Source: Patescibacteria group bacterium (GTDB lineage: Bacteria > Patescibacteriota > Microgenomatia > PFEM01 > JAHIFH01). From it: a stretch of 64,000 nt of DNA. Below the pieces are notes generated by a model, which saw only the letters and a program-made list of their open reading frames with translations, did no database searches and was not told the origin of the DNA. Positions within the stretch are counted from its first letter, which is position 1, and every line of letters begins with the position of its first letter. The position numbers were made by a program, and so were the translations under genes. Where the stretch lies: the NCBI GenBank assembly GCA_035529375.1, contig DATKWU010000005.1:521-64520 (forward strand). The letters run 5' to 3'. Shown piece after piece: positions 27,717 through 45,331 of this stretch.

Positions 27717-27736
27717 CCTCAACTTTTCAGTGGCAT

Positions 27737-27888: not shown

Positions 27889-29350
<1,462 letters not shown>

Positions 29351-30697: not shown

Positions 30698-31444
30698 TTA
30701 TCTTCTTTTATAGACCCTGCTCAAAAACAGGGTAAGTTCAAATAAAACGATAAGAGGTAAAGAAAGAAGAATGTCGGCCAAAACTGAATCAATGGGAAGA
30801 AGGATAGCGAAGAAAAAAGAACCCAGATAAATCCACAGACGTTTTCGGCTTAACTCTTGGCGGCTGATGAGGTCAAAACGGACTAAGCAAAGCAAGAGAA
30901 TTGGAAACTGGAAACTAATTCCCATTAGAGTGGAGATTAAAAGAAAGGTAGACAGAAGCTTACTGATATCTAACATGCTGCCGATACCTAATTGAACTGA
31001 TTTGGCCTGGAAGACCTCGATCTGCCATTTCATAATTAGAGCCCCGAAAACAAATCCAATTAAAAAAAGGATGACGGAAAAAGGTAAGAATTTGATTATT
31101 CTTTTAAACTCTTTTCTCTTTAAAGCTGGTTTTAGAAAAGACAAAACCTGGATGATTAAAAGAGGAAGGGCGACTACCAATCCAGTAGCGATCCCGCAGC
31201 TGATGGCTAGATTAATGAACTGAAAAGGAGAGGTAAAAACAATGTTTATTCCTTCAAGAGGGAGAAGACTAAGTAAGAATTTAATGATTTTTTCATAAAA
31301 GATAAAACCAATAATTGTAGCAACAACAAAAACGGCGACGGTAAAAATGATTCTTTTTCTGATTTCTTTGAGGAAAGGGGAAAGTTTTTCTTTTATCTTG
31401 GCTAATTCAGAAGAATTTATAGGTTGGATATTAGTCGCAACCAT
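30698..31444 (-). CDS. tatC: Sec-independent protein translocase subunit TatC
   Basis: 248 aa with six hydrophobic helices. TatC-like N-terminal amphipathic motif (FLKEIRKRI) and central SPFQF...ALPLLIIQVLSFLKPAL region. Confidence 0.75.
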   Translation of the reverse strand: MVATNIQPINSSELAKIKEKLSPFLKEIRKRIIFTVAVFVVATIIGFIFYEKIIKFLLSLLPLEGINIVFTSPFQFINLAISCGIATGLVVALPLLIIQVLSFLKPALKRKEFKRIIKFLPFSVILFLIGFVFGALIMKWQIEVFQAKSVQLGIGSMLDISKLLSTFLLISTLMGISFQFPILLLCLVRFDLISRQELSRKRLWIYLGSFFFAILLPIDSVLADILLSLPLIVLFELTLFLSRVYKRR

Positions 31445-31914: not shown

Positions 31915-32160
31915 TTATTTTTTACCCATACTAGCTGCAAACCAATTAGAACCATCATAATACTCCAGACTGTTGGTTTGCAAGTTAAATCCCAAGATTC
32001 CCTGTTTGGCCTTTTTTGGTCTCTCCCCTGTTTTCCAGGAGGCAATTTTGGGCATGCCGAGCATTAAGAATAAGTCTTGACCGATATTTAGCAGGAGCGG
32101 ATAACTCTTTTCCATTTTGACTTCACATCCATTGTATAGACTTTTTTCTTTTGGTGTCAA
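31915..32160 (-). CDS. Small (81 aa) protein whose C-terminal ~50 aa are homologous to the C-terminus of the adjacent giant Ser/Pro-repeat protein
   Basis: PKIASWKTGERPKKAKQGILGFNLQTNSLEYYDGSNWF aligns with SIPSWNTTGRPKKAKKGTFGFNVESKTLEFWNGTSWL of ORF 32191-36333. Confidence 0.5.
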   Translation of the reverse strand: MTPKEKSLYNGCEVKMEKSYPLLLNIGQDLFLMLGMPKIASWKTGERPKKAKQGILGFNLQTNSLEYYDGSNWFAASMGKK

Positions 32161-32190: not shown

Positions 32191-35100
32191 TTAGCTGATT
32201 TTTTTCATTGGCAATTTCAGCCAAGAAGTTCCATTCCAGAACTCCAATGTTTTGCTTTCCACATTAAAGCCAAAAGTGCCCTTTTTAGCTTTCTTGGGCC
32301 GGCCAGTAGTGTTCCAAGAAGGAATGGAAACAGCCTTTAAGCCTAAATAACCCCTCTTGCTAACAACTTCCCTACCAACAATGAGGGGGTGTTTGTTAAA
32401 GATAACTGGCGCCGGAGGCGGAGTAGGAACAGGCCGAGGACTGGGCGAAGCTGAAGGTGAGGGGCTAATACTGGGTGAAGGTGTTGGTGAGGGTGAACCC
32501 GGTGTTGGTGAGGGTGATGGCGATGGGCTGGGGCTAGCAGACGTCGGTGAGGGTAGTGAGGGTGATGATGAAGGCGATGGAGATATTGAGCCACTGAGTG
32601 AGACCGACGGACTAAGACTAACGAGAATCGACGGTGAAACGCTTGGACTAATTGAGGCTGAGGGGCTGAGACTGGGTGAAACACTTGGACTAACTGATGC
32701 TGATGGACTAACGCTGGGTGAAACGCTTGGACTAACTGAAGCAGACGGACTGACCGATGGACTAGCCGAGGGGCTAAGCGATGGGCTGGCTGAAGGGCTA
32801 ACACTTGGACTAACTGAAGCAGAAGGACTAACGCTGGGTGAAACACTTGGACTAACTGATGCTGATGGACTGACACTTGGACTAGCCGAGGGGCTAAGCG
32901 ATGGGCTGGCTGAAGGGCTAACTGAAGGGGAAACACTGGCTGACGGAGAAACGCTAGGACTGACCGATAGACTGACCGAGGGACTCAGACTCGGTGAAAC
33001 AGACGGACTCAGACTCGGAGAGACACTTGGTGAAACTGACGGACTTAAAGAGGGACTAGCCGATGGTGAAATACTGGCACTCGGACTAAGGGAGGGACTA
33101 ACGCTTGGTGAAATTGAAGGAGACAAACTGGGACTCAAACTGGGAGATACCGAGGCAGATGGTGAAACACTTGGCGATATCGAAGGCGAAACCGATGGGC
33201 TTACTATCGGAGACAGACTTGGCGATACACTCGGTGAAATTGAAGGCGAGACCGAAGGGCTAGCACTCGGTGATACTGATGGACTAATACTGGGTGAAAT
33301 TGAAGAAGATACTGAAGCACTTGGTGATACCGATGGACTCACACTGGGTGATACTGAGGGACTAATTGACGGACTGACTGATGGTGAAGCAGATGGGCTA
33401 ACACTTGGAGAAACACTCGGTGAAACACTTGGACTGACGCTCGGCGAAACCGAAGCAGATGGTGAGACACTCGGCGATACTGAAGGAGAAAGCGATGGGC
33501 TCGCACTAGGTGAGGCCGACGGACTAATTGATGGGCTTACGCTTGGAGATGCGCTTGGTGATACTGAAGGGCTAATTGATGGTGATATCGAAGCCGAGGG
33601 AGATACTGAGGGGCTGATACTCGGAGAAACGGAAGGAGAAACTGATGGACTAACACTTGGAGAGACACTGGGGCTAATACTCGGGCTAACCGATGGCGAA
33701 ACACTAGGTGAAACACTTGGGCTGATCGAAGCAGAAGGACTAATTGATGGTGAAGCTGATGGGCTAATTGATGGTGAAGCAGAGGGAGATGCCGATGGTG
33801 AAACACTTGGACTAGCGCTTGGAGAAACACTGGGCGATACAGAAGCTGAAGGAGAAACGCTCGGACTCACAGAGGGTGAAATACTGGGTGAGACTGATGG
33901 ACTAGCTGATGGACTCACAGAGGGTGAAATACTGGGTGAAACTGAGGGACTAGCGCTTGGACTAATACTCGGACTGACTGAAGCGGAGGGTGAGACTGAT
34001 GGGCTGACAGATAGACTGGCACTGGGTGAAACAGACGGACTTACAGACGGTGAAACACTTGCCGATGGAGAGACTGAGGGTGAGATTGATGGCGAGACAG
34101 AGGGACTGACTGAGGGAGATGCCGATGGTGAAACTGATGGACTAGCGCTTGGACTAACACTCGGACTCACAGAGGGTGAGACACTGGGTGAGACTGAAGG
34201 TGAAACACTTGCCGATGGGCTGACTGACGGACTGACTGAAGGACTCACACTAGGTGAGACTGATGGGCTGACAGATACACCGATAGAGGGTGAAACTGAT
34301 GGACTTACTGAAGGCGAAACAGATGGACTGACACTGGGTGAAACTGAAGCCGATGGACTGACTGAAGGGCTGACTGAAGGTGAGACTGATGGACTAACTG
34401 ACGGAGAAACAGATGGACTGGCACTGGGTGAGACTGATGGGCTGACTGACGGAGAAGCAGATGGAGAAATTGAAGGTGAGACGCTGGCACTCGGTGAAAC
34501 GGATGGGCTTACCGATGGACTAACTGAAGGTGAAACTGAAGGAGAAACGCTAGGTGAAACACTCGGAGAAACAGACGGACTCACAGAGGGTGAGACACTT
34601 GCCGATGGAGAGACTGAAGGTGAAACTGATGGCGAGATAGACGGACTGACCGAGGGAGATGCCGATGGCGAAACAGATGGACTAGCGCTTGGACTAACGC
34701 TCGGACTCACAGAAGGTGAAACACTGGGTGAGACTGACGGTGAAACACTAGCTGATGGAGAGACTGAAGGTGAAACTGAAGGTGAAGCACTCGGAGATAC
34801 ACTCGGGGAAACTGAAGGCGAAACAGATGGACTAGCGCTTGGAGAAACAGACGGTGAAACACTTGCTGATGGACTAACTGAAGGAGAAACGCTGGGTGAA
34901 ACCGACGGGCTAGCGCTTGGACTAACGCTCGGACTGACTGAAGCGGAGGGTGATACTGACGGACTCACAGAGGGTGAAACACTGGGTGAGACTGATGGAC
35001 TAACTGAAGGCGAAACAGATGGACTAGCGCTTGGAGAAACACTGGGCGATACAGAAGCTGAAGGTGAAACGCTCGGACTCACAGAGGGTGAGACGCTGGG

Positions 35101-36333
35101 GCTTACTGAAGGACTTATAGATACACCGATAGAGGGTGAAACGCTTGGAGAGACAGACGGCGAAGCAGAAGGACTGACCGACGGTGAAACGCTTGCCGAT
35201 GGACTAACTGACGGGCTGACCGATGGTGAGACGCTGGGTGAGACTGATGGACTTACAGACGGACTGGCACTAGGACTCACTGAAGGACTAACTGAAGGAG
35301 AAGCAGAAGGACTGACTGAAGGTGAAACACTTGCGCTCGGTGAAACAGACGGACTGACCGAGGGTGAGACGCTGGGGCTGACAGACGGGCTCACACTGGG
35401 TGAAACTGATGGACTAACGCTTGGAGAGACAGACGGCGAAACGCTTGCTGATGGACTGACACTGGGACTCACTGAAGGACTAACTGAAGGAGAAACCGAT
35501 GGACTGACTGAAGGAGAGACTGAAAGCGAGACTGAAGGGCTAACACTCGGCGAAACACTCGGAGAAACCGATGGACTGGCTGAAGGTGAAATACTGGGAC
35601 TCACTGAAGGACTAACTGAAGGGCTCACACTAGCTGAGGGAGAAACTGATGGTGAAACCGATGGGGAAATCGATGGTGAAACAGATGGACTGACCGAGGG
35701 GGAAATCGATGGTGAAACAGATGGACTGACCGACGGGCTAGCACTTGGCGAAACACTCGGGGAAGCTGAAGGAGAAACCGATGGGGAAACACTGGGAGAG
35801 ACACTTGGACTGGCTGAAGGACCAGATGCCGTCAAAACCTGCGAGTGGGATTTATCTGTATCCAAAGGAATTATGGCGCCGGCAATTTTGACCCGGAAAT
35901 AATAGGTGGTGCTAGAAGAAACATTGGCCGTCGGGACAATACAAACATCAAATTCGTTATTCTTTTTTTTAGTAACCGCGCAAGTATAAGTACCGCTTTC
36001 AATGTATTGCCCTTGCGAGGTGGTGTCAGTCAAAAGCCATTGCCCAACCACAGGTGGAGAAGGATTCCCTTCGGTTGCTTGACCATCGGCATAATTCCAG
36101 TGATTAGCAGCACCAAAAGACGTCCAACCATCAATATCATTAAGGGAATACTCCATCGTCCAAGCCCCACTCCCGTTTGTGTTACCTGTTTCCCCAATAC
36201 GGATTCTCAATCTGGTCTTGTTGATATTATTGGGTAAGGTTGGCTTGGTATTTTCATTAGCCAGCTGGCTTGATGGTTCGATACCATCGTCCTGAAACCA
36301 TTTCCAATTTCCTTGGTTGGGTGTAAATGCCAT
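32191..36333 (-). CDS. Giant (1380 aa) protein: N-terminal ~170-aa globular domain, ~1100 aa of tandem [V/A/I/L]SPS tetrapeptides, Pro-rich linker, conserved ~55-aa C-terminal domain
   Basis: The non-repetitive N-terminus (MAFTPNQGNWKWFQDDGIEPSS...YYFRVKIAGAIIPLD) has no obvious signal peptide. About 275 VSPS/ASPS/ISPS/LSPS units follow. Then PSPSPSPTPGSPSPTPSP...PVPTPPPAPV. The C-terminus is shared with ORF 31915-32160. Confidence 0.8.
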   Translation of the reverse strand: MAFTPNQGNWKWFQDDGIEPSSQLANENTKPTLPNNINKTRLRIRIGETGNTNGSGAWTMEYSLNDIDGWTSFGAANHWNYADGQATEGNPSPPVVGQWLLTDTTSQGQYIESGTYTCAVTKKKNNEFDVCIVPTANVSSSTTYYFRVKIAGAIIPLDTDKSHSQVLTASGPSASPSVSPSVSPSVSPSASPSVSPSASPSVSPSVSPSISPSVSPSVSPSISPSVSPSVSPSASVSPSVSPSVSPSISPSASPSVSPSVSPSVSPSVSLSVSPSVSPSVSPSVSPSVSPSVSPSASVSPSVSPSVSPSVSPSVSPSVSPSVSPSVSPSVSPSASVSPSVSPSASPSVSPSVSPSASPSVSPSVSPSVSPSVSPSVSPSASVSPSVSPSASPSVSPSVSPSIGVSISPSVSPSVSPSVSPSVSPSASVSPSVSPSASPSVSPSVSPSVSPSVSPSVSPSVSPSASVSPSVSPSASPSVSPSVSPSVSPSASVSPSVSPSASPSVSPSVSPSVSPSASPSVSPSVSPSASVSPSVSPSVSPSVSPSVSPSASPSVSPSASPSVSPSISPSVSPSVSPSASVSPSVSPSVSPSVSPSVSPSVSPSVSPSVSPSVSPSASVSPSISPSASPSVSPSVSPSASPSVSPSVSPSVSPSVSPSVSPSASVSPSVSPSVSPSVSPSVSPSIGVSVSPSVSPSVSPSVSPSVSPSASVSPSVSPSVSPSVSPSVSPSASPSVSPSASPSVSPSVSPSISPSVSPSASVSPSVSPSVSPSASLSVSPSVSPSASVSPSISPSASPSVSPSISPSVSPSASPSVSPSISPSVSPSVSPSASVSPSVSPSASPSVSPSASPSASPSISPSASPSISPSASISPSVSPSVSPSVSPSISPSVSPSVSPSVSPSVSPSISPSVSPSASISPSISPSVSPSASPSVSPSISPSASPSASPSLSPSVSPSVSPSASVSPSVSPSVSPSVSPSVSPSASPSVSPSISPSVSPSVSPSVSPSASVSSSISPSISPSVSPSASPSVSPSISPSVSPSLSPIVSPSVSPSISPSVSPSASVSPSLSPSLSPSISPSVSPSLSPSASISPSASPSLSPSVSPSVSPSLSPSVSPSLSPSVSLSVSPSVSPSASVSPSVSPSASPSLSPSASPSVSPSASVSPSVSPSVSPSASVSPSVSPSASPSLSPSASPSVSPSASVSPSVSPSVSPSASVSPSVSPSLSPSASISPSVSPSILVSLSPSVSLSGSISPSPSSSPSLPSPTSASPSPSPSPSPTPGSPSPTPSPSISPSPSASPSPRPVPTPPPAPVIFNKHPLIVGREVVSKRGYLGLKAVSIPSWNTTGRPKKAKKGTFGFNVESKTLEFWNGTSWLKLPMKKIS
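32370..35820 (-). repeat. About 3.4 kb coding minisatellite: tandem 12-nt units (plus-strand register about GGTGARACNGAT/GGACTRACTGAA) encoding the SPS tetrapeptide array, ending in a Pro/Ser-rich tail
   Basis: 12-nt periodicity with many imperfect copies is visible throughout 32.44-35.83 kb. Shadow ORFs appear in several frames and on both strands. Confidence 0.9.
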
Positions 36334-36558: not shown

Positions 36559-37665
36559 TTACTGTGCCGGACGTCGATAATGGGCAAGGCCAATTTCTAG
36601 ATGCTGGATAGTGGATTGAGCCGAAAAAATCACCCCGGAGGAAGGCAAGGATGATTTTTTCCTAGCCGGTTTGGTAGCGATATGTTTTGAACTGAGTTTG
36701 GCTTCTTTAGTTTTGAGTTTTTTCAAATCTTCATCGGTCCAACCTTTAACCGGCCAGAATTTCTCCACCAACCAAGAAACCGGATGCTTCTGATCTGGCA
36801 AACCCTTCAAGATTTGTTCCCAGACTTTTTTTCTGACCTCGTGCTGATCCTTACCTGAAGCAGGCCAAGGAAAACTAAAAGTGGCGTTTTTCGTCCGAAA
36901 CATATGGGCATACCAAGTTTGGTGGTTAACCAGCACCCGGCCACCTTTCAACCAGGTTTTACAAGCGACTTCAATGCCTTGATGTCCCCAATTGCCAAGC
37001 GTTTCATCACACAAATTCCAATCCCAATATAATTGACGCAGACACATAAAACATGATCCTTGAATTGACATTATTTCGGTTAATCCCTTCTCCTTCTTAT
37101 CTTTTTTGTATTCTGGCCGGCGGCGATATTCACCAAAATAAGCAAATGTGGGTTGAGCGTCAAAACAATAGGAATCGCTCTGGGGCCGCTCTTTGCCGAT
37201 CCAAAGCATTTTTTTCTTCATTTTGTTCCCACAAGCAGGACATTTGGGTTCCCGATCTTGGTAAACTCGCTTGCCGCATTTATAGCACTTCCAGTCATAA
37301 GCCCACAGATTTCTCATCACCGGAAGCATCACCACTTTTTCATCCACTTTTCGGAAAGCCTCAATCATTTTTCTATCAAAACCCTTATCAAATGAACAAT
37401 GAGCGTCCAATTTCATCACGTATTTGGCCCGGCTTAAGCGACAGGCCAGATTCTGAGCCGCCCTTTGGCCAATCGCCGGATTAACATAAATTAGACTCAC
37501 CCGATCATGTTGTTCTATGGGTGAGTTGGCCCATTGGCCATCTAAAACAGCAATCACTTCCGTATCGGCCTCGATATTTTTTAAAATATCCTCGATCGTG
37601 TTTTCCAGGAATTCCTCATTCCTGGCTGGTATTAAGATTGACAAATCACGCATAACCGACAGCAA
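36559..37665 (-). CDS. Family 2 glycosyltransferase (GT-A) with an inserted Cys4 zinc-ribbon and a Lys-rich C-terminal tail
   Basis: N-terminal LSILIPARNEE...VIAVLDGQ...KLDAHCSF (GT2 DxD/DAH region). CYKCGKRV...CPACGN insertion. Paralogous to ORF 44525-45331 (QGSC-W, GG-L-VN--TW-AH). Confidence 0.7.
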   Translation of the reverse strand: MLSVMRDLSILIPARNEEFLENTIEDILKNIEADTEVIAVLDGQWANSPIEQHDRVSLIYVNPAIGQRAAQNLACRLSRAKYVMKLDAHCSFDKGFDRKMIEAFRKVDEKVVMLPVMRNLWAYDWKCYKCGKRVYQDREPKCPACGNKMKKKMLWIGKERPQSDSYCFDAQPTFAYFGEYRRRPEYKKDKKEKGLTEIMSIQGSCFMCLRQLYWDWNLCDETLGNWGHQGIEVACKTWLKGGRVLVNHQTWYAHMFRTKNATFSFPWPASGKDQHEVRKKVWEQILKGLPDQKHPVSWLVEKFWPVKGWTDEDLKKLKTKEAKLSSKHIATKPARKKSSLPSSGVIFSAQSTIQHLEIGLAHYRRPAQ

Positions 37666-38053
37666 TAACCGCTATTGGCCGTAAATTAGTGCCAAGAGCT
37701 TTTGCCACCCTCCTTTCTCTAAAAGCCCCAATCCAAACTGAGGCCAAACCCATCTCAACTAATAACAGTTGTAAATAAGCACCACAAATAGTCGCGTCTT
37801 GGATTGAATACAAATTCCTACCTCTGTCTCCATACCTTTTGGCGTAAGCTTCTGGGTTGGTACAGATTACGAGATACAGCGGCGCGTCTAAGGAAATAAC
37901 CTTTTCTTTGGTGGCAATTACCTCAAAACCCCTAATTCCCCCGGCTGATGGCCCAGTTTTGGCTAAAGCAATCAACTTCGTCAAATCTGGCACTTCTTTT
38001 TCTTTAAATACCCTAATTGATTTTCTTTTTTTAATTACTTCTTTAAGTTCCAT
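37646..38053 (-). CDS. Short nitroreductase-family-like protein (135 aa)
   Basis: N-terminal KKRKSIRVFK motif (compare RRS-R-F of nitroreductases). C-terminal WIGAF...IAVIAVGYA. Overlaps the downstream GT2 start by 20 nt. Shorter than typical family members. Confidence 0.4.
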   Translation of the reverse strand: MELKEVIKKRKSIRVFKEKEVPDLTKLIALAKTGPSAGGIRGFEVIATKEKVISLDAPLYLVICTNPEAYAKRYGDRGRNLYSIQDATICGAYLQLLLVEMGLASVWIGAFRERRVAKALGTNLRPIAVIAVGYA

Positions 38054-38540
38054 CTAGTTCACAAAACTTTATTAATGCCTCAATAATCGCTTTGTTGTAA
38101 GAATCTATCAATTTCTTGTTGTATTTTCCTTTCCAGCTTTTTAATATTTTTTTTGGTTTTCTAAAACAACAGATTAAGTAAACGTCGTTGCTCAAATGGG
38201 GCAAATACTTGTCAACCGTAAAAGCCGATCTAGGGTCTTTCCAGCCCCAAAAATCAGCCTTTTTTCTTTTAATTAACTGCTTAATTTCTTGTGTCCAATC
38301 TTTATCAGGATGACGGATCATTAACTTATTTAGTTTCAAAAAATCTGGATCTTCATAAAAATCCTTATTATATGTTTTTACTTTTTTTCCACCCCTTCTA
38401 TCCCAGTTAAAACCCTTCTTCACACTACCCATCTTTACTCCCCCTATTTCAAGGAGTTTAGAAATAAACGAAGTCGCCGAGTTGGGACAACCAAGCACTA
38501 TATAAGTCTTTTCTTCCTTGCTGTGTATTTTAATCGTCAT
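38043..38540 (-). CDS. P-loop sulfotransferase-like protein (tentative)
   Basis: Preferred start at the internal Met (MTIKIH...), which gives an ATGA overlap with the upstream gene. YIVLGCPNSATSFISKLL resembles the PAPS-binding 5'-PSB loop of sulfotransferases. Otherwise no clear motif. Confidence 0.35.
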   Translation of the reverse strand: MTIKIHSKEEKTYIVLGCPNSATSFISKLLEIGGVKMGSVKKGFNWDRRGGKKVKTYNKDFYEDPDFLKLNKLMIRHPDKDWTQEIKQLIKRKKADFWGWKDPRSAFTVDKYLPHLSNDVYLICCFRKPKKILKSWKGKYNKKLIDSYNKAIIEALIKFCELDGT

Positions 38541-39343
38541 ATTATTCCATTTTTTTTGAACAATTTTTTTAATCTTTTGGTAACTAATGGCTTGCCTAGC
38601 CTGTTTTTTCCGTAAACGCAAACTTCCAGATTAGCGTTCTCTGACTCCCGGTCAACCGGCCTCCTATCGAAGGGGTGAAAGTGAATCACTTTCAGTGGTT
38701 TGTCGGCAATCTCATAAGTTTTAACAATATCTCTTCTTCTGGTCGCAAAATTATAGGTGATGTTGATTCGGTTGATTCTCTTTTTCAAATATTGGAATCT
38801 TTTTTTCTTGAGAATGTCCAGCAAGACGACTTCCTCGTTAGCCCGATAGGCGTCGGTTGTCCGCTTCCAAATATCGAAAATATATTCCGCCTTCGTGTCA
38901 AAGAATATCGTTCCCGTACTCCACCTTTTATCTAGCGTAAAATGAATAACCGTCTTGCCGTAATCAGTCAAAGCCAAATCGTAACCATCAAGCATTTGTT
39001 TCGCCTCGCCTTCAGTTATTTTTTGGAGCTGGAAAGCATCGTTGTCGTGATACCAAAAAATATCATCGCTGATAATGCCCATGTTATACAGGGTAATAAT
39101 CGCATTAATTTTAGTCGCTGTCGGTTTGATATGGTTGAAATTATCATCCCCAATGACCAATGCTTTAACCCCTTCATACTCGTAATCAAAGCTGGTCACC
39201 AATAAAATGTCTTTCCGTTTCCACCCCAACTCCAAACTGTTATCAATCTGGATTTTTATCAAAGACTCAACCTCACTACTCCAGTTGTACTGGTCACTTA
39301 CAAAACTTCTGTTTGGACTGATGTAAATTAGTAAGTTTTTCAT
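38537..39343 (-). CDS. Putative nucleotide-sugar glycosyltransferase-like protein (DxD-containing, family unassigned)
   Basis: Preferred start MKNLLIYISP gives an ATGA overlap with the upstream methyltransferase gene. YHDNDAF is a DxD-like motif. Rich in W/Y/K, like its neighbours. Confidence 0.35.
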   Translation of the reverse strand: MKNLLIYISPNRSFVSDQYNWSSEVESLIKIQIDNSLELGWKRKDILLVTSFDYEYEGVKALVIGDDNFNHIKPTATKINAIITLYNMGIISDDIFWYHDNDAFQLQKITEGEAKQMLDGYDLALTDYGKTVIHFTLDKRWSTGTIFFDTKAEYIFDIWKRTTDAYRANEEVVLLDILKKKRFQYLKKRINRINITYNFATRRRDIVKTYEIADKPLKVIHFHPFDRRPVDRESENANLEVCVYGKNRLGKPLVTKRLKKLFKKNGII

Positions 39344-39957
39344 TTGATCCAAAACCAACTTGGGCAACGGTCGCTGTCTTTTCCAATAACATACCAATTC
39401 TTTATCCTATTAGCCTGGGTATAGGCATCAACCGCAAACTTGACCTGCATATTTTCCCAAGCCCAAGGTTGCTTTCTCTTTTTAAAGTCCTCTGGATGAA
39501 TATAATCATGTCCAGCAATCGTCCCACCCTTCCTGACTTTCTTTGACCAACCATCAATGTCCTCAGCCACATACTTTAAAATATGATTGCCGTCAATATA
39601 AACAAAATCCAAACTCTCATTCTCAAAGTTCTTTAAAGCCTCCATCGAGGTTTTTCTCACAACGGTAGCGTTTTCGTAACGGGATAAAAGTTTCCAAGCC
39701 CGATGATAAAGATATTCTTGTCTCTCTACTCGGGCGTCTTCTACTCGATCAAAGCCGGGATAGGGTGTCCAATAATCTATGGCGTAAATTTTCAATCCCG
39801 CCTTACAAAACTTTCTAGAAAACCAGCCTTTGTAAACTCCGATTTCTGCTCCGATTTGGTAACCCATTTCCTTAAAAAAGCCAGGTAAATCATTTCGTGA
39901 AGAACCGGGAATCACAAAAGGGTTGTCTTGGTGTTTAATTCCTTTAATTATTTTCAT
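39340..39957 (-). CDS. Class I SAM-dependent methyltransferase, TylF/MycF (macrocin O-MT)-like
   Basis: FFKEMGYQIGAEIGVYKGWFS (motif I-like), IDYW, GGTIAGHDY. Size of 205 aa is typical of TylF-family sugar O-methyltransferases. Confidence 0.55.
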   Translation of the reverse strand: MKIIKGIKHQDNPFVIPGSSRNDLPGFFKEMGYQIGAEIGVYKGWFSRKFCKAGLKIYAIDYWTPYPGFDRVEDARVERQEYLYHRAWKLLSRYENATVVRKTSMEALKNFENESLDFVYIDGNHILKYVAEDIDGWSKKVRKGGTIAGHDYIHPEDFKKRKQPWAWENMQVKFAVDAYTQANRIKNWYVIGKDSDRCPSWFWIK

Positions 39958-39958
39958 T

Positions 39959-40630
39959 CTATTTTTTGTAAATTTCTTTCACTCCTTTCATTAAACTCGC
40001 CCTTACTTTCTTGCCGTTTCCCCAATAAGGCAAGTCGTAAATCGGCGCTCTTTCGGAATGGGTATAGTACCTCATACTCCGATGGGTTTTAACTTGAAAC
40101 ACAGGGTTTTTTGTTTTCCAATAATAAATCTTGTCAAAAATATCGTCTTTCTTTGTTCTCTCTTTGGGAAAGTTCTTTTCTTCTACTGACCACTGAGGCA
40201 ATCCTTTAAACTGTTCACCTAATACCTTTAGATAATATTTTCTGCCGATAACTTGGGCGTGGGTTGCCCCTTCCTTTTTGTAAAACCAGTAATTCCGGTG
40301 ATCACCCATGACATAGACATTCGAGTTTCGGTAACACCGATCCAATTCTCTTGGTCTGAAGGTAAAATAATCGGGAGGATACATGCAGTCGGCCTCGGCC
40401 GAGATGACGAAATCGGCCTTTGTGTTTTGACAGCCTATTTGAATTTGCCTGAACATATTAAAATTAGAAGCGCCCACGTTGCCGATGCAGATGTTTTTCC
40501 CAAAGTTAATCGGTTCTTGAGAAACGCTAATAATCGGCAAATCAGTCACTTTCAAAATGTTTGCTTTGATCCTATTTTCAAACTCAGGGTGCTCCTGATT
40601 GCTAGTGTAGTATATAATAGTTGCCGTCAT
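39959..40630 (-). CDS. Unknown-family protein; paralogue of ORF 41610-42272 (candidate GT-A-like transferase)
   Basis: Shares IISVSQEPINFGKN / IITISRKPLDWGKN, AEADCMYPPDYFTFRP / ADDDTLYPEQHFQFRP and C-terminal YDLPYWGNGKKVR / YDIPIWGKAKNLR with ORF 41610-42272. Confidence 0.5.
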   Translation of the reverse strand: MTATIIYYTSNQEHPEFENRIKANILKVTDLPIISVSQEPINFGKNICIGNVGASNFNMFRQIQIGCQNTKADFVISAEADCMYPPDYFTFRPRELDRCYRNSNVYVMGDHRNYWFYKKEGATHAQVIGRKYYLKVLGEQFKGLPQWSVEEKNFPKERTKKDDIFDKIYYWKTKNPVFQVKTHRSMRYYTHSERAPIYDLPYWGNGKKVRASLMKGVKEIYKK

Positions 40631-41649
40631 GTTAGCTTTTGATATAGTTTGACTACGTTTTCAATATGATATGGTTCCGCCATTTTGATTAATTTTTCAG
40701 GCCATTGATCGTATTCTGCTTTTAACTTTTTAACTCCTGCCAGCAGTTCTTTCATATTGTTGGCAGGCAGATAGTAACCTTCAATTTCTTTGTAGCTTTT
40801 TAGCGGGTAGGCAACGGTAGGAACTCCAAATGAGGCGGCATTGATAATTTTAGTGGGTGTTTTGTGAATGCTCTGATCTCCCAACTCCCAGCCCCCGATT
40901 ACCAAAATGTCAATGTTTTTGTAAAAATTAGCAGCATCTTCCCTCCCTTCAAACTTAAAACAAGTAACAAAATCAAAACCTATTTCTTTAACGGCCCTCC
41001 CTATTCGCCCATATATTTCTCTCGCAATTGGCGAAACGCTTCCGGTATATCCACAAGTATTAACTTCCTTCCGTTCTCTTCTTTGCCCTTCCCAATTGAG
41101 GTGGTGATGAGGGATAAGAACGACTTTGTTCGCTAAATGATTTTTCAGCCAATCGTAACTTCTCTTTGAGGCGGCGATTAAATTAATCCCTGGTCTTTTT
41201 TTCAGCTTTTTAATAAACTTGCCTCCATCCAAAACATCTACCCAGTCGCCATCCTCAATATCGTCTAAATTACTTGGCTTAAGATAAATGCAGACATCGT
41301 TCTTGTATTTTTTCTTTGGGTTAATTCTGGCACCCAAAAACTTAGCCATCTGATATCCTCTTATTTCTGTTGAAAGATAGCCTCCATGCTTCTTAGGCCA
41401 AAAAATGCTAATCATCCTTTCTTTGATATTCCTTCTTTCATCGAAATATTCGTTGATAGCATTGACCAGCTCTGAACTAAATCTTTTTAAATCCTGAAGT
41501 TCCTTGGCGTCTTTTTTTGTGCGTTTATCTCTTTGAACTTTATCGACCAAATGAAATATTTTAATGTTGGTTATTCCCAGTTCGTCAATTAATGCTCCTA
41601 TTGTCTTTTTCATACAAACTTTCTCCTTAAATTTTTTGCTTTTCCCCAA
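40627..41649 (-). CDS. GT-B (family 1-like) glycosyltransferase, tentative
   Basis: C-terminal region DILVIGGWELGDQS...KIINAASFGVPTVAYP resembles the nucleotide-sugar-binding half of GT1 enzymes. The N-terminal ~60 aa are Lys-rich. Confidence 0.4.
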   Translation of the reverse strand: MGKSKKFKEKVCMKKTIGALIDELGITNIKIFHLVDKVQRDKRTKKDAKELQDLKRFSSELVNAINEYFDERRNIKERMISIFWPKKHGGYLSTEIRGYQMAKFLGARINPKKKYKNDVCIYLKPSNLDDIEDGDWVDVLDGGKFIKKLKKRPGINLIAASKRSYDWLKNHLANKVVLIPHHHLNWEGQRRERKEVNTCGYTGSVSPIAREIYGRIGRAVKEIGFDFVTCFKFEGREDAANFYKNIDILVIGGWELGDQSIHKTPTKIINAASFGVPTVAYPLKSYKEIEGYYLPANNMKELLAGVKKLKAEYDQWPEKLIKMAEPYHIENVVKLYQKLT

Positions 41650-42272
41650 ATGGGAATATCATAAGCTCTTACTGGCCAAGGATATTTTCTTCTTCTTTGA
41701 TTTAATTTATCCATCGATTTCTGGTGGTAAAAACTAACTACTGGCGCTTTGGTATAAAATGTTTCAGCTTTTATCAAATCATATTTAAGCATTACCCGTT
41801 TATCTCCTAATTCCCCATGTAAACCATGACGCATCTTATCCAAGTTTTGAAGCCTATTTTCAATTGCTTTTATTATTGCGTTACGAGTGGCTATCATCAA
41901 CCCACCACCACAACGGGGCTTATGAAAATAGTATGATCTCCCCCATGTAAAAAGATGCCACCTATTCAGATTGTAAAAGAACCCTTCTTTATTTGGTCTA
42001 AATTGAAAGTGTTGTTCAGGATAAAGAGTGTCATCGTCTGCTATGGCTATGTAGGGAGTTTTAGCTAGCTTTGCCCCCCTTAACTTTTGCTCAAAGAGAT
42101 TTACTACCCCGTATTCCGTCTGAATCAAGTTCTTTCCCCAATCTAATGGCTTGCGTGAAATAGTAATTATTGGGCAACCACCAGACGCTTCCAATAGTTT
42201 TTCCTTATGAAACTCCGCCCACTTTTCAGGCACTAGGTTTGGTGTACACATTATTATTGTTAAATCCTTCAT
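41610..42272 (-). CDS. Unknown-family protein; paralogue of ORF 39959-40630
   Basis: See the paralogue entry. ADDD and W-rich motifs. Confidence 0.5.
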   Translation of the reverse strand: MKDLTIIMCTPNLVPEKWAEFHKEKLLEASGGCPIITISRKPLDWGKNLIQTEYGVVNLFEQKLRGAKLAKTPYIAIADDDTLYPEQHFQFRPNKEGFFYNLNRWHLFTWGRSYYFHKPRCGGGLMIATRNAIIKAIENRLQNLDKMRHGLHGELGDKRVMLKYDLIKAETFYTKAPVVSFYHQKSMDKLNQRRRKYPWPVRAYDIPIWGKAKNLRRKFV

Positions 42273-42553
42273 AGTAGTTTTCGGTAAAAATCTTTATTTA
42301 TCTTGGTAAAACCTACCTTCTCATATAATTTTTTGGCTGGTAGATTATCTTTATTCACTACCAATTCTACTGAATCCACATTTTTATCTTTAGCCAATGC
42401 CAATGCCTTATCAAGCAATTCAGTTCCAATGCCCATTCTCCGATGTGCCTTCTCGACTTCAACCACATCTATTATCATCACGTTAGCCTTCCCATTGTTA
42501 TAGAAAGTGCATAAACACGACCCGCTTTTTACCTTTATTTTTTGCTGTTCCAT
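42269..42553 (-). CDS. Small GNAT-family N-acetyltransferase
   Basis: Motif A region VEKAHRRMGIGTELLDKALALAK; 94 aa. Overlaps the DegT gene end by 19 nt. Confidence 0.6.
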   Translation of the reverse strand: MEQQKIKVKSGSCLCTFYNNGKANVMIIDVVEVEKAHRRMGIGTELLDKALALAKDKNVDSVELVVNKDNLPAKKLYEKVGFTKINKDFYRKLL

Positions 42554-43614
42554 TTATTAAATGTCTCCCCTATGTAATTAACATCTTCTATCGTTATCCG
42601 ACTATGAAGCGGAAGATAGAAATACTTATCTTCCAACCTATTCATATTCGGCAATTCCTGTTTCTTCTTACCAAACACTTCAAAGATGTCGTTCCTCAGT
42701 TGAACCAAGTCGCACTCAATGCCATTCTCTCGAAGGTATCTTATTAGCTCATCCCTTTCGTCTGACAGAATCATAAATAGCCAATAAGAACCACCACATA
42801 TCTTCCTATAAGAGGATAACTTTTTCATATAGGCTTCACATAAAGTTTTCCTGTACTCTAGGATTTCGTCTGTGTATTTAAGTCCTATTAATCCCAAGGT
42901 GGCGGCGATATCGTTCATATGGAACTTATAACCAGCCTCTTTAATTTCTTGAGCCATCTGGTGATTAACAACGCATCTCCACCCTGCTCGCTTTTTGGCT
43001 TCTCTGTCAATACCAAACCACCTTAATCTTTTAGCCCGATTGTAAATCTGTTTATTCCTAACCACCAACATCCCACCATCACCAGTAGTAAAATGCTTAA
43101 TCGCCTGAAAAGAGTAACAAATATAATCCCCATAGTCCTCACTTATTCCAAGTGACTGGGCAGCATCTATTACAACTGGCACTCCGTAACGCTTGGCGAT
43201 AGTAAAGATTCTCTTATCAACCTGAAGTCCACCCAAATTGACTACCACCAATGCCTTTGTTTTGTTACTTATTTTTTTCTTGACATCATCATAGTTCACC
43301 AAAAAATCTTCGTTAATATCTAAAAAATTAATATTGGCTTCTCTGTGGAGTAACGGCAGATTAGTTGCGGTACAAGTAAAAACAGCAGTTAAAACTTCAT
43401 CACCGCTCCCAATCCCGATAAGATGATATGCTAGTTCCAAGGCAGCCGAACCACTATTTACGCCTAGGCAATATCCATAGCCAAATTTCTTCCCAAAGGC
43501 TTTCTCAAATTCCTCTACTTTCGGTCCTTGCCCAAGCCATCTGGTATCGAATATCTTGGATAACTCCTCTAACCATTCTTCTTTATATATTTGTGGATGA
43601 AATAACTGAATCAC
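42535..43614 (-). CDS. DegT/DnrJ/EryC1/StrS-family PLP-dependent sugar aminotransferase
   Basis: GDEVLTAVFTCTATN, DAAQSLG, SFQAIKHFTTGDGGMLVV (PLP-lysine context). 359 aa. Confidence 0.8.
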   Translation of the reverse strand: MIQLFHPQIYKEEWLEELSKIFDTRWLGQGPKVEEFEKAFGKKFGYGYCLGVNSGSAALELAYHLIGIGSGDEVLTAVFTCTATNLPLLHREANINFLDINEDFLVNYDDVKKKISNKTKALVVVNLGGLQVDKRIFTIAKRYGVPVVIDAAQSLGISEDYGDYICYSFQAIKHFTTGDGGMLVVRNKQIYNRAKRLRWFGIDREAKKRAGWRCVVNHQMAQEIKEAGYKFHMNDIAATLGLIGLKYTDEILEYRKTLCEAYMKKLSSYRKICGGSYWLFMILSDERDELIRYLRENGIECDLVQLRNDIFEVFGKKKQELPNMNRLEDKYFYLPLHSRITIEDVNYIGETFNKWNSKK

Positions 43615-44537: not shown

Positions 44538-45331
44538 TTAGGTACAATTTCTTTTTCATAATAATCACGCCAAATTTTTAAAGTGTAAGCAAACCCATCT
44601 CTAGCTTCTTGGCCACCGTAGCCATGAGTCCGGGGGAATTTGCGGTGTTTGTGGGCGTGCCAAGTGTTTTTGTTGACCATCAACTTTCCGCCCGCTTGCC
44701 AAGTTTTGAACTGCATTTCGTGTGAATCTTGGTAGTGGGTTCCATACCCTCCGCTTTGCAGTTCGCCAATGACCTCATCCCACCATTTTTTCTTCATCAC
44801 CCAACAAGACCCCTGCATTGCCATCGTTTCATCCAACACGATTTCTTTCCTTTCTTTAGCTCTCCTCGGCCAATTAAGACCTGAAAACTTTTCTGTTTTG
44901 CCTCCTTTACCATCGCTGACTTTGCCGATAATTAACTTCATATAATCAACTGGGGGAATATCCATTACCTCCCATTTCTCAACATCCAGAAAGTAGCGTC
45001 TTGGGGTAACAATCCAGCTGTGTTTAATTTGGGAAGTTAATATCTTGTCATAGCCTTTGGCAAAAGTGGCGTGTTCGTCTGTCCGCATAATGTATTTGCC
45101 CCGAGCAACTCTTATACCGCAGTTGATGGCGTTCCTCATGCCCTGATTTTTGCCAAGATGAATCACTCTTAGGCGGGGGTCATCTTTTAATTGGGGGTTG
45201 GGCCAATAGCCGTCCAAAATAGCGATTACCTCAAGTCTTTCTCCCAAGACAGAGTTTGCCAATAGAGAATCGGTCGTCTTTTGGAGCAGAGGATCCTTGT
45301 AACTTGGAATGATCACCGATAGATTTATCAT
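44525..45331 (-). CDS. Family 2 glycosyltransferase (paralogue of ORF 36559-37665)
   Basis: LSVIIPSYKDP...VIAILDGYW...RTDEHATF. Shares QGSCW and WQAGGKLMVNKNTWHAHKH with the paralogue. Confidence 0.7.
   Translation of the reverse strand: MINLSVIIPSYKDPLLQKTTDSLLANSVLGERLEVIAILDGYWPNPQLKDDPRLRVIHLGKNQGMRNAINCGIRVARGKYIMRTDEHATFAKGYDKILTSQIKHSWIVTPRRYFLDVEKWEVMDIPPVDYMKLIIGKVSDGKGGKTEKFSGLNWPRRAKERKEIVLDETMAMQGSCWVMKKKWWDEVIGELQSGGYGTHYQDSHEMQFKTWQAGGKLMVNKNTWHAHKHRKFPRTHGYGGQEARDGFAYTLKIWRDYYEKEIVPKWFK

Follow-up and report, generated by a model that had tools for sequence, protein, structure and literature searches.

A Giant Serine/Proline-Repeat Protein Encoded Between Sugar and tat Genes of a Microgenomates Bacterium: A Candidate Mucin-Like Surface Fibril

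Gene Content of the Locus

The window analyzed here, a stretch of 64,000 nucleotides from an uncultivated, ultra-small Microgenomates (CPR) bacterium, encodes a giant protein with a calculated mass of 131 kDa and a computed pI of 9.4, which is built from an N-terminal head, a Ser/Pro-rich stalk of [V/A/I/L]-S-P-S tetrapeptides (xSPS) and a conserved C-terminal domain (C-domain) (Table 1). The locus is chromosomal, with an rRNA operon, mnmA and tat genes to one side and sugar genes to the other, and a soluble glycosyltransferase (GT) is encoded directly upstream of the big gene. Directly 3' of it, in nearly all related loci, lies a small paralogue of the C-domain; the listed 81-aa version of this small protein has a TTG start overlapping a −35 box. 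The promoter-like site concerned is located between the stop codon of the big gene and the small ORF, and by this consensus match, in a region where the total of such sites equals the expectation from shuffled sequence, transcription of the small-ORF/tat unit may be separate from that of the big gene. At the metagenome loci L017 and L018 the gene is identical to the one described here, and their comparison revealed 20.7 kb, the repeat array included, that are identical between two separately assembled metagenomes.

Table 1. Features of the xSPS locus, with positions in the window.
Feature	Position	Strand	Basis or content
Complete gene, 1380-aa xSPS-repeat protein	32191..36333	(-)	ORF list
N-terminal head, aa 1-173, beta-sandwich domain	35815..36333	(-)	large uncharacterised family
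Ser/Pro stalk, aa 174-1298	32440..35814	(-)	250 [V/A/I/L]SPS units and 26 'AS' inserts; SP/TP-rich linker at end
Conserved C-terminal domain, aa 1309-1380	32194..32409	(-)	...IPSWNxxGRPKxxKxGTxGFNxxxxxLExWNGxxWLKLPMKKIS
Antisense ORF, 1181 aa, G/L/E/T/D-rich	32357..35902	(+)	ORF list; annotated by public pipelines
Sigma-70-type promoter-like site, TTGACA-18-TACAAT, 11/12 matches	32131..32160	(-)	consensus match only
Small C-domain paralogue, 66 aa from ATG 32115	31915..32115	(-)	ORF list, alignment
tatA-like gene 1, 62 aa	31668..31856	(-)	Pfam TatA_B_E (weak); gene calls of identical locus L017
tatA-like gene 2, 55 aa	31454..31621	(-)	Pfam TatA_B_E
tatC	30698..31444	(-)	Pfam TatC, 1.5e-38
Soluble GT-A glycosyltransferase with zinc ribbon, distant GT27 relative	36559..37665	(-)	Pfam Glycos_transf_2, 4e-12
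Same-strand sugar island	37646..45331	(-)	nitroreductase-family protein, methyltransferase, DegT/PseC-like sugar aminotransferase, second GT2, unknown proteins
216-aa membrane protein, candidate Tat-dependent	45414..46064	(-)	internal Tat-like motif
423-aa protein, IS200-like Y1_Tnp domain and C-terminal SH3_3	46079..47350	(-)	always paired with the 216-aa protein

The Repeat Array and Its Coding Strand

The Ser/Pro region comprises 1125 residues, or 81.5% of the protein, in which exact [V/A/I/L/G]SPS units (176 VSPS, 35 ASPS, 28 ISPS and 11 LSPS) number 250–251 and cover 73%; the first-pass annotation had counted about 275 tetrapeptides making up roughly 80% of the ORF, a proportion that holds for the whole region but not for the exact units. 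The units are organized into super-repeats, mostly of 38, 46 or 50 aa, which are delimited by the 26 extra AS dipeptides. At the DNA level the regularity is largely lost: the 250 repeat units comprise 168 distinct 12-mers, adjacent 12-nt units are only about 51% identical, the longest exact repeat inside the array measures 45 nt, and Tandem Repeats Finder detected the array only as fragments with 65–95% matches. Serine is encoded by 338 TCN and 219 AGY codons, which interchange at equivalent positions. The array is thus not a true minisatellite, as which it had been described (3.4 kb with a 12-nt period), and the scrambled codons and the use of both Ser codon families argue against slippage hypermutability. 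Two assemblies made independently contain an identical array, and the copy-number or phase variation proposed earlier is not supported. This identity, together with the shortness of the longest exact repeat, also shows that the array is not an assembly artefact.

The minus-strand frame, as had been read initially, forms one ORF without interruption; it is also open in the relatives L001 and L002, and it passes seamlessly from a head domain with 918 relatives into the C-domain, which is conserved in more than 50 loci. In the stalk, comparison with the L001 orthologue revealed 278 differing codons in the sense frame, 222 of them synonymous (80%; 20% non-synonymous), while only 154 of 274 are synonymous in the antisense frame (56%; 44% non-synonymous). 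The first-pass annotation had considered that the plus-strand frame alone might be conserved in homologues, and it is the minus-strand frame that this comparison favors. Selection at the level of the minus-strand protein follows as well from the low identity of adjacent units and from the mixture of TCN and AGY codons. The minus-strand ORF is a genuine protein-coding gene under purifying selection for [V/A/I/L]-S-P-S.

The converse reading, that the long plus-strand ORF is the real gene and the VSPS frame its by-product, is already largely refuted and retains a negligible probability, even though gene callers chose this ORF in four independent JGI records (L001, L002, L017 and L018) and the array is rich in purines and in G on its plus strand, as are coding strands elsewhere in the window. 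The ORF has conserved non-repeat domains at neither end, its non-synonymous fraction is more than twice that of the sense frame, and its repeat columns exchange Leu for Glu/Asp wherever the sense serine switches between AGY and TCN. The plus-strand ORF is a by-product that the repeat brings with it, and the public annotation lies on the wrong strand; a search of recorded proteins returned no public record of the exact sense protein.

Terminal Domains and the Protein Family

The non-repetitive termini had been recognized initially as a head of about 170 aa, which agrees with the 173 aa delimited here, and as a conserved C-domain, for which the size has to be raised from 55 to about 70 aa. The same C-domain ends xSPS proteins in metagenome-assembled genomes of Woesebacteria, Levybacteria and Collierbacteria and in about 50 metagenome loci, while the xSPS stalk varies in length and flavor across the family. 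The heads comprise about 200 aa, are of adhesin, Ig-like or phage-fibre type, and differ even between close relatives; several of them, including the one described here, match phage fibre/tail families. Relatives of the present head mostly form the very N-terminal end of fibrous phage proteins, and in phage structural modules the domain is often found directly ahead of a fibrous protein of 744–1765 aa. As judged from these domain comparisons, the heads are interchangeable and in several cases drawn from a pool of phage fibre/tail domains, and the protein defines an undescribed Microgenomates (CPR) family combining a swappable head, an xSPS stalk and a conserved C-domain. The core motif of the C-domain likewise matches phrog_1325 (4e-8) and a tail-fibre PHROG as well as minor tail proteins of Streptomyces phages and virion proteins of cyanophages, in which it is placed N-terminally or internally rather than at the C-terminus as in the xSPS proteins. 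Pfam DUF7360 matches the C-domain weakly, in 10 of 20 members.

With phage-type modules at both termini, the head being known from structural modules and the C-motif from minor tail proteins, the protein could stem from a phage, either as the tail or head fibre that a cryptic prophage encodes or as a phage part since domesticated. It would then be assembled inside the cell and set free on lysis, rather than being a surface protein that the cell exports. The missing signal peptide would suit a virion protein, the succession of a fibre gene and a small gene recalls the layout of phage fibre and assembly chaperone, and one phage locus contains a glycosyltransferase within its structural module. 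However, a Pfam scan of roughly 40 ORFs of the window yielded no phage hallmark gene, the site is chromosomal and is flanked by the rRNA operon, mnmA and tat and, at its opposite end, by sugar genes, synteny is kept across genomes whose TatC proteins are just 54–92% identical, and with its conserved end at the C-terminus and its variable end at the N-terminus the protein shows the opposite of the usual tail-fibre polarity. We consider a phage-derived fibre unlikely.

Glycosylation of the Stalk

Serines of the array are flanked by proline at position −3, −1, +1 or +3 in 99% of cases, while threonine is nearly missing. The adjacent GT retrieved exclusively polypeptide GalNAc-transferases (ppGalNAc-Ts) from the PDB sequences (five of five hits, E 1.6e-4 to 8e-3), and a profile of seven sequences did so in seven of eight hits (best E 1.2e-5). 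The likeness to GT27 is weak (best E 1e-5, about 90 residues aligned), and the alignment takes in the DxH motif ('LDAHC') and the Gal/GalNAc-T motif. Many ppGalNAc-Ts prefer threonine, and both the weak likeness and the near lack of this residue in the array speak against the assignment. In at least 11 related loci a homologue of the GT is encoded upstream of the repeat gene, at a distance of 1–6 kb, and sugar genes adjoin the family locus in two different arrangements. The earlier assignment of a sugar-modification island to 36.5–45.3 kb is borne out by two GT2 enzymes and one each of a DegT/PseC-like aminotransferase, a methyltransferase and a nitroreductase-family protein, but six or so of its proteins have no family match; two of these are paralogues of a second domain that relatives carry in longer forms of the GT. 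We infer that the adjacent soluble GT(s) O-glycosylate the serines of the stalk while the protein is still in the cytoplasm. The mucin-like, probably O-glycosylated stalk proposed initially is thus strengthened by evidence other than that first put forward, namely the GT27-like neighbor, its recurrence and the Pro-flanked serines.

The first-pass annotation had instead linked the stalk to membrane glycosyltransferases of the PMT/GT-C type at 202–6013, in analogy to protein O-mannosylation in actinobacteria. The Ser/Pro-rich sequence is similar to O-mannosylated linkers, and Pfam confirms PMT_2 (202–1887) and YfhO (3728–6013) in the window, although the third gene assigned to this group (1947–3755) matches only an NPCBM domain and the O-antigen-ligase-like gene reported at 13827–15788 scores below the Pfam cut-off. 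The PMT/GT-C genes lie 26–32 kb away, beyond the rRNA operon, no link between them and the xSPS family came to light, PMT-type enzymes act only outside the membrane on chains translocated by Sec, for which the xSPS family carries no signal, and the conserved neighbor is the soluble GT27-like enzyme instead. That the protein is a substrate of these enzymes is therefore very improbable.

Export and the tat Genes

A signal peptide is absent from the N-termini of all family members whose heads were compared. For the 1380-aa protein a Kyte-Doolittle scan over 19 residues, a crude measure compared with a dedicated predictor, gave −0.23 within the first 60 aa and a maximum of 1.21 overall, thus neither a hydrophobic N-terminus nor a TM-grade segment, as had been noticed before; a sortase motif and a lipobox are likewise not present in it. 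This lack of any known type of export signal would suit an intracellular protein such as a disordered scaffold or a storage-like protein, or an array that is a tolerated runaway expansion without specific function. Such readings are hard to reconcile with an S-P-S register that strong purifying selection has kept exact along 1100 residues although the codons are scrambled, with an architecture and neighborhood kept across divergent genomes, and with swappable heads of the types described above, and we regard them as quite unlikely.

A possible route out of the cell is suggested by the neighborhood. Among 40 related loci with enough flanking sequence, 26 have tatC downstream of the xSPS gene at a distance of no more than 3 kb, and 11 lack it in the available flank. 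In loci in which the small paralogue is not immediately followed by tatC, the gene pair encoding the 216-aa and 423-aa proteins stands in its place, and the present window holds both tatA-tatA-tatC and this pair. The 216-aa protein consists of two N-terminal hydrophobic segments, an invariant motif D-K-R-(A/V/T)-(F/L)-(L/I)-K (KRxFLK), a third hydrophobic segment immediately following the motif, and a conserved C-terminal domain of about 100 aa. A twin-arginine motif is present neither in the big protein nor in the small paralogue. Actinobacterial Rieske proteins are an established case of an internal Tat motif ahead of the last TM helix (PMC3471235, PMC5449189), whereas the Tat system of E. 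coli tolerates the substitution of Arg by Lys poorly (PMC7317946). The recurrence of the tat operon and the membrane protein with its KRxFLK motif make a Tat-linked step the leading candidate for export, which is at the same time the weakest link of the model. To our knowledge, an unstructured chain of about 1100 residues is without precedent as a Tat cargo.

Proposed Role and Comparison With Known Systems

The reading we favor, to which we assign about an even chance, is that the giant polypeptide is a long, mucin-like surface fibril of a Microgenomates bacterium that is O-glycosylated in the cytoplasm. In this reading the glycosylation, the location at the cell surface and the route of export are inferences, and against the surface location stands the lack, in the protein, of the export and anchoring signals considered above. 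In such a fibril the adjacent soluble GT(s) would modify the Pro-flanked serines before export, which would proceed without an N-terminal signal and perhaps via the Tat-linked step; the glycosylated stalk would form an extended spacer resisting proteases, of up to about 350 nm if wholly in polyproline-II conformation; the C-domain and its small paralogue would anchor or assemble the fibre at the cell; and the variable head would serve as distal binding tip, e.g., for attachment to host cells.

Tail fibres and minor tail proteins of phages (e.g., the minor tail protein of Streptomyces phage Camvirus, and virion structural proteins of cyanophages) have the RPxxxxxGxxGFNxxxxxxExWxGxxW motif and the N-terminal beta-sandwich in common with the xSPS protein, besides the fibrous layout and the small gene after the fibre gene, but their stalks are collagen-like or beta-helical while the xSPS stalk is of low complexity and its locus chromosomal and conserved. 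Eukaryotic mucins are alike in their tandem repeats of Pro-flanked hydroxy-amino acids, and the xSPS GT aligns, weakly, to their ppGalNAc-Ts; it has neither the lectin domain nor the membrane anchor of eukaryotic GT27 enzymes, hence would act in the cytoplasm and not in a Golgi-like lumen, and its acceptor would be almost solely Ser rather than Thr. Plant extensins and AGPs as well as GP1 of the Chlamydomonas cell wall contain (Ser-Pro)n or Ser-Pro3-5 repeats that form polyproline-II rods once glycosylated. These hydroxyproline-rich glycoproteins share the periodic Ser/Pro repeats, but they are eukaryotic, pass through the secretory pathway and require prolyl hydroxylase, which was not identified at the xSPS locus.

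The phoD-tatAd-tatCd operon of Bacillus subtilis is a dedicated substrate-Tat operon. Haloarchaeal 'tafi' Tat-dependent filaments similarly combine a surface-appendage gene with Tat components (PMC11821415, PMC12337348). Both kinds of substrate are small folded subunits with a canonical N-terminal twin-arginine signal, whereas the giant xSPS protein has neither property and the only Tat-like motif of its locus, KRxFLK, is internal and resides in the separate 216-aa membrane protein. The serine-rich repeat adhesins (SRRPs) Fap1, GspB, PsrP and SraP of Gram-positive bacteria, which come with accessory Sec loci, also have a very long Ser-rich stalk and a non-repeat binding region, locus-encoded cytoplasmic glycosyltransferases acting before export, and export genes beside the substrate; their function is adhesion, and it is established that they are glycosylated inside the cell and then exported by a dedicated system (PMC5578698, PMC6973325). 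The accessory Sec components SecA2/SecY2/Asp, GtfA/GtfB, a KxYKxGKxW-type signal and LPXTG are absent from the xSPS locus, which differs from SRRPs furthermore by a proline in every repeat, a GT27-like instead of a GT4 neighbor, tatA/tatC as export neighbors, and heads and anchor of phage type.

The Repeat Array and Its Coding Strand

The giant xSPS protein (1380 aa, 578 of them Ser) is encoded on the minus strand by a single ORF, and the interrupted frame considered in the first-pass annotation was not found. Its almost pure Ser/Pro/aliphatic region, the stalk, spans residues 174–1298 and comprises 1125 residues, including 557 Ser, 265 Pro, and 183 Val. The stalk is flanked by 173 non-repetitive residues at the N-terminus (N-domain or head) and, following an SP/TP-rich linker, by approximately 70 non-repetitive residues at the C-terminus (C-domain). 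Both flanks had been recognized before, and the earlier statement that about 80% of the protein is repeat holds for the Ser/Pro region as a whole. The estimate of about 275 tetrapeptide units was too high: 250–251 exact [V/A/I/L/G]SPS units were counted (176 VSPS, 35 ASPS, 28 ISPS, and 11 LSPS), together with 26 additional AS dipeptides and a few degenerate units. As the AS inserts are mostly spaced by 38, 46, or 50 residues, the array has a higher-order repeat.

On the DNA level the array had been taken for a 12-nt minisatellite, a view that has to be abandoned: 168 different 12-mers encode the 250 units, neighboring 12-nt units are ~51% identical, and Tandem Repeats Finder returned fragments only across the array. 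The four wobble positions per unit are near saturation (entropy 1.6–1.95 bits), and TCN and AGY codons, 338 versus 219 in all, alternate at both serine positions, a switch that takes two or three base changes. The scrambled codons, the use of both serine codon families, and the low identity of the units show that selection holds the amino acids while the DNA drifts.

A long antisense ORF on the plus strand, rich in Gly, Leu, Glu, Thr, and Asp, offers another reading of the same DNA. The wobble positions of both frames coincide, so that wobble variation alone does not settle which strand is coding. The sense frame, in turn, joins the conserved N-domain to the conserved C-domain without a break, and each AGY/TCN serine switch in it corresponds to a switch between Leu and Glu/Asp in the antisense frame. 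Moreover, when the array was compared over 1788 aligned nt with that of the related JGI locus L001, whose flanks are 93% identical to the window, 222 of the 278 differing codons were synonymous in the sense frame versus 154 of 274 in the antisense frame; the concern that the plus-strand frame might be the conserved one is thereby largely removed. On these three grounds the minus-strand frame is a real gene. It is open up to the contig end in L001 and in a second related JGI locus, L002.

Public gene calls tell a different story. In L001, L002, and two JGI records identical to the window (L017 and L018), the antisense ORF is annotated as a protein of 1018–1181 aa rich in Gly, Glu, Thr, Asp, and Leu, and the C-terminal 62 aa of the giant protein are turned into a gene of their own. 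In the array it is the plus strand that is rich in G and purines, as coding strands elsewhere in the genome are, and this coding-like composition is the likely reason why the antisense ORF is chosen. Standard gene callers take the antisense strand of xSPS arrays and fill databases with spurious Gly/Glu/Thr/Asp/Leu-rich "proteins," which is why the xSPS family is largely missing from protein databases; the exact 1380-aa product has no record in the protein collection.

The array is also not an artefact of assembly. Contigs of 70 and 51 kb from the separately assembled metagenomes JGI 3300031565 and 3300031566 show 100% identity with the window across 20,747 bp, array included, and the longest exact repeat inside the array is only 45 nt, so that short reads can resolve it. 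These findings, combined with the low unit identity, also argue against the proposal that the array is hypermutable or phase-variable. Its diverged units leave little substrate for slipped-strand mispairing, and the near-identical, short, slippage-prone units of contingency loci were not found in it. Between populations the array changes faster than its surroundings: it is 78–81% identical in a patchy manner, compared with 93% for the flanks. L001 and L002 are 99% identical over 2.66 kb before a register shift of 168 nt (14 units) occurs in the array, which may reflect populations that differ in array length or else an artefact at the ends of the assembly. The divergence between populations is evolutionary remodeling by recombination and does not count as evidence for phase variation.

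End Domains and Architecture of the xSPS Family

While scans of the N-domain (residues 1–173) with Pfam and PHROG gave no match, an exhaustive profile search recovered 918 cluster representatives, of which 108 scored below 1e-30. In most relatives the domain is located at the extreme N-terminus (consensus MGxxxFTPxQxNWRWYxDDxxEPT..., no signal peptide) and is followed by long degenerate fibrous repeats or by LamG-like or beta-helix-like domains; some giant proteins carry 13–20 copies of it. Close homologues (40–53% identity) occur in clear phage contigs next to genes for portal, Mu-F, S78 protease, capsid, head-tail adaptor, and GH108 endolysin, and in several of these contigs the homologue is a gene of ~190 aa adjoining a fibrous protein of 744–1765 aa. 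The N-domain was found in 10 IMG/VR contigs, and a tblastn search of 50,697 deposited phage genomes found none. In one phage contig bearing an N-domain homologue (L005), the head module includes a gene for a GT9-family glycosyltransferase, a hint that the virion may be glycosylated.

The C-domain (consensus ...P(V/I)FxxNxLI...IPSWNxxGRPKxxKxGTxGFNxxxxxLExWNGxxWLKLPMKKI) found no relative among solved structures in a profile search. Its relatives comprise 10 GTDB loci and 73 metagenome loci, and MAGs carrying them include some named Candidatus Woesebacteria, Levybacteria, and Collierbacteria (Microgenomates group, CPR). Approximately 50 loci are of the window type, with a long Ser/Pro-rich ORF ending in the C-domain; these ORFs have a Ser+Pro fraction of 0.4–0.7 and reach >2180 aa, often running past the contig end, where many related arrays stop. 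The repeat flavors include VSPS, ISPS, SASLSPS, ESPSLSPS, and others. The other ~30 loci encode non-Ser/Pro proteins of 450–1000 aa, often in tandem genes, with the core motif of the C-domain near the N-terminus. This placement agrees with the occurrence of the core motif in phrog_1325 (4e-8) and a tail-fibre PHROG, in minor tail proteins of Streptomyces phages, and in cyanophage virion proteins.

The heads of full-length family members differ even at 87–90% C-domain identity, and the HMM of the window N-domain matched none of them. Signal peptides are absent from seven full-length relatives. A Woesebacteria head matched a phage tail PHROG (5e-12), and two other heads weakly matched a PHROG of unknown function. 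Since the heads differ, the repeats vary in flavor and length, and the C-domain is shared, the xSPS proteins form a new family in which the C-terminus is conserved, the stalk varies in length, and the N-terminal head is exchangeable; the end modules of the giant protein are of phage type.

Two relatives deserve a separate description. In the complete Ca. Woesebacteria genome CP066693.1 (L025) the head is a Gly-rich domain matching a phage tail PHROG, and the homologous gene is split over three overlapping reading frames with repeated junctions, where "...SPQLE" plus stop in one frame becomes "...PSIGVSASPS..." in the frame that follows. A pseudogene, a sequence error, and programmed frameshifting are the conceivable causes. 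In the MAG locus L024 (glycosyltransferase 88% and C-domain 79% identical) the N-domain ends after 41 residues and a CxxCxxCC-type Cys-rich ORF enters the repeat in place of the remainder, reflecting either head replacement or chimeric assembly.

Conserved Gene Neighborhood

The neighborhood of the big gene is conserved and contains a GT27-like enzyme, a small paralogue of the C-domain, Tat genes, and a KRxFLK membrane protein. Coordinates are collected in the table.

Features of the window and of related loci
Feature	Location	Strand	Remark
Window	1-64000		nearly all genes on minus strand
154-aa integrase-SAM-like ORF	6829-7293		just upstream of the 2122-aa protein gene
2122-aa protein gene	7435-13803	+	integrase-SAM-like N-terminus, one TM helix, DUF2341
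rRNA operon, split	21517-29355	-	16S and 23S ~3.2 kb apart, tRNA-Ile and tRNA-Ala between
VirD4/TrwB-like coupling protein gene	25569-27716	+	715 aa, between 16S and 23S, opposite strand
Small paralogue of the C-domain	ATG 32115		66 aa
Big gene (giant xSPS protein)	32191-36333	-	1380 aa
Antisense ORF	32357-35902	+	
Remnant of GT second domain	36442-36540	-	~30 aa, intergenic, upstream of big gene
Upstream GT (GT27-like)	36559-37665	-	
Sugar island	37646-45331	-	
Paralogue of GT second domain	40313-40618	-	free-standing, in sugar island
Paralogue of GT second domain	41616-42257	-	free-standing, in sugar island
216-aa membrane protein gene	45414-46064	-	upstream of sugar island; same pair as in relatives, 43-47% identity
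Y1_Tnp/SH3_3 protein gene	46079-47350	-	upstream of sugar island; same pair as in relatives, 43-47% identity
Y1_Tnp (HUH) + C-terminal SH3_3 homologue	L067 7055-8188		
Y1_Tnp (HUH) + C-terminal SH3_3 homologue	L071 6795-7961		
GT9-family glycosyltransferase	L005 8148-9317		
N-domain cut after 41 residues	L024 6493-6615		
Homologous gene in three frames	L025 6391-10189		

Directly after the big gene, relatives encode a paralogue of the whole C-domain of 64–70 aa. In the window it is preceded by a promoter-like site (11/12 match to the sigma-70 consensus, by consensus match only) that overlaps the TTG taken as start in the ORF list. Its N-terminus was considered as a Tat signal and rejected, since it has no RR/KR motif and since the stretch that would form the h-region contains a GQG turn and an acidic residue that is conserved. 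Two tatA-like genes and tatC follow. The tatC gene (TatC identity 54–92%) lies within 3 kb downstream in 26 of the 40 loci with at least 2.5 kb of downstream sequence and ~9.5 kb downstream in three more, counts that refer to loci retrieved by the C-domain itself and have no background model behind them.

Where tat is not directly next, the small paralogue is followed by a gene pair, the first encoding a protein of ~380–420 aa with IS200-like Y1_Tnp and SH3_3 domains and the second a membrane protein of ~200 aa. Being paired with the 216-aa protein in every case and tied to the xSPS locus, the Y1_Tnp/SH3_3 protein is probably not a mobile-element transposase. The 216-aa protein is encoded beside xSPS genes in at least 16 loci. 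At its N-terminus lie two hydrophobic segments, followed by a Lys-rich loop, a motif, a third hydrophobic segment, and a conserved domain of ~100 aa. The motif, D-K-R-(A/V/T)-(F/L)-(L/I)-K, is invariant among seven divergent homologues, immediately precedes the third hydrophobic segment, and has Lys instead of Arg as its first basic residue throughout. Neither a cofactor motif nor a Pfam family was identified for this protein, and with an hhalign probability of 0.1 a relationship between its C-terminal domain and the C-domain was rejected.

Upstream of the big gene a soluble GT-A glycosyltransferase is encoded, and at least 11 related loci have a homologue of it 1–6 kb upstream. Among solved structures the enzyme has five relatives by sequence, every one of them a polypeptide GalNAc-transferase (weak, E 1.6e-4 to 8e-3), and so are seven of the eight matches to a seven-sequence profile (also weak, best E 1.2e-5); the alignments span the DxH motif ("LDAHC") and the Gal/GalNAc-T motif ("WGhqGiEvacKtWLkGG...H.FR"). 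Pfam assigned generic Glycos_transf_2 only and matched neither a ricin-type lectin domain nor a type II membrane anchor. The window enzyme has a zinc ribbon, and its relatives, with 550–600 aa, have a different second domain; a remnant and two paralogues of this domain occur in the window. Whichever of the two gene orders is present, the locus comes with sugar genes, namely a PseC/DegT-like aminotransferase, a second GT2, and a methyltransferase, and in locus L067 additionally an epimerase/dehydratase and an RGP-like protein. Three unknown proteins of the sugar island have no relatives among solved structures.

The window further contains tRNAs, rho, radA, mnmA, and other housekeeping genes besides the bacterial rRNA operon. 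On the plus strand the GC skew stays negative (cumulative -7.4), the repeat array being the sole long stretch of strongly positive skew. In the 2122-aa protein, collagen-like GPTGATG repeats account for ~280 aa (Pfam Collagen, 4e-28) and the phage-type motif found in the C-domain is present in another copy; this protein is a second fibrous surface protein of the window.

Export Signals and a Possible Surface Appendage

The giant protein begins with MAFTPNQGNWKWF..., where hydropathy does not exceed -0.23 in the first 60 aa, and it ends with ...WLKLPMKKIS. No RR/KR motif or h-region is found at its N-terminus, no KxYKxGKxW-type long signal peptide by sequence and hydropathy, and no LPXTG motif or hydrophobic tail at its C-terminus; it resembles no Tat, Sec, sortase, or lipoprotein substrate in its signals. 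The earlier observation that signal peptide and TM helix are missing is borne out, as a simple hydropathy scan gives no such segment anywhere; these calls were made by hydropathy and inspection and not by dedicated predictors. This creates a secretion puzzle, since the protein has no signal peptide, yet Tat genes adjoin.

According to the current view, CPR/Patescibacteria spend their lives attached to other microbes and, to our knowledge, their attachment molecules are largely unknown apart from type IV pili. On the favored reading of the giant protein, the stalk would be O-glycosylated on serine in the cytoplasm, as suggested by the finding that 99% of the array serines have proline at -3, -1, +1, or +3, a context favored by mucin-type transferases. 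The protein may be displayed as an extended fibril with a computed length of up to ~350 nm if wholly polyproline-II, anchored or assembled by the C-domain and the small paralogue, and the head would be a binding tip.

A more far-reaching reading, which we put forward as an unlikely one, is that the locus represents a previously unrecognized surface-appendage system of CPR bacteria. A bacterial enzyme related to the mucin-type GalNAc-transferases would O-glycosylate several hundred serines of the giant signal-less polypeptide in the cytoplasm. The polypeptide would then cross the membrane via its conserved C-domain. This domain may "hitch-hike" on a dedicated TatA-TatA-TatC translocase in the company of the small paralogue, the KRxFLK protein, or both; alternatively, it could itself be a new C-terminal export signal. 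Phage-derived, swappable heads would serve as host-recognition tips for an episymbiotic lifestyle.

The xSPS family is of interest as a candidate for the long attachment filaments of CPR bacteria, combining a conserved anchor with rapidly exchanged tips of phage-receptor-binding type and accompanied by a conserved glycosylation gene set and possible export genes. Paired with the GT27-like enzyme, it would amount to a mucin-like glycoprotein that bacteria invented independently.

Comparison With Known Systems

A literature search on the repeat sequence, DUF7360, and CPR O-glycoproteins retrieved nothing relevant. The first-pass annotation had pointed to PMT/ArnT/YfhO-type glycosyltransferases and an O-antigen-ligase-like gene in the window and to O-mannosylation by PMT-type enzymes. 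The PMT_2, YfhO, and Wzy-like genes are real or partly real, but they lie 26–32 kb from the big gene across the rRNA operon (PMT_2 at about 30 kb) and nothing was found that links them to the xSPS family; actinobacterial-type modification by PMT (GT39) does not suit the giant protein, which has no Sec signal.

The Tat consensus motif is S-R-R-x-F-L-K (PMC7317946), with which the motif of the 216-aa protein agrees except for the first Arg, replaced by Lys. Rieske proteins inserted by both Sec and Tat carry an internal twin-arginine motif that faces the cytoplasm just ahead of the last TM helix, and beyond this helix they have a domain that folds outside the cytoplasm (PMC3471235, PMC5449189). 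The 216-aa protein resembles them in the position of its motif and in its predicted topology. Based on the near-consensus motif and its Rieske-like position, this protein would be a more orthodox candidate Tat client than the giant protein.

The giant protein resembles phage fibre and tail proteins in that the N-domain family occurs in phage contigs and the C-domain motif in annotated minor tail proteins. Unlike phage tail fibres, it is encoded within conserved chromosomal synteny. A prophage origin is unlikely, as no phage structural, packaging, or lysis gene was found among the ~40 window ORFs scanned with Pfam (some small ORFs lay outside the scan).

The serine-rich repeat adhesins of Gram-positive bacteria are glycosylated intracellularly and have a dedicated exporter encoded alongside (PMC5578698, PMC6973325). 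Every defining component of that system is absent at the window locus: Pfam and NCBIfam scans of the neighbors found no SecA, SecY, or GT4 (secA2/secY2/asp, gtfA/gtfB) and returned TatC, TatA, GT2, DegT, methyltransferase, and others. The giant protein is nevertheless like the serine-rich repeat glycoproteins in that Ser-rich repeats make up most of it (1125 of 1380 aa), and these adhesins may serve as its closest working analogy.
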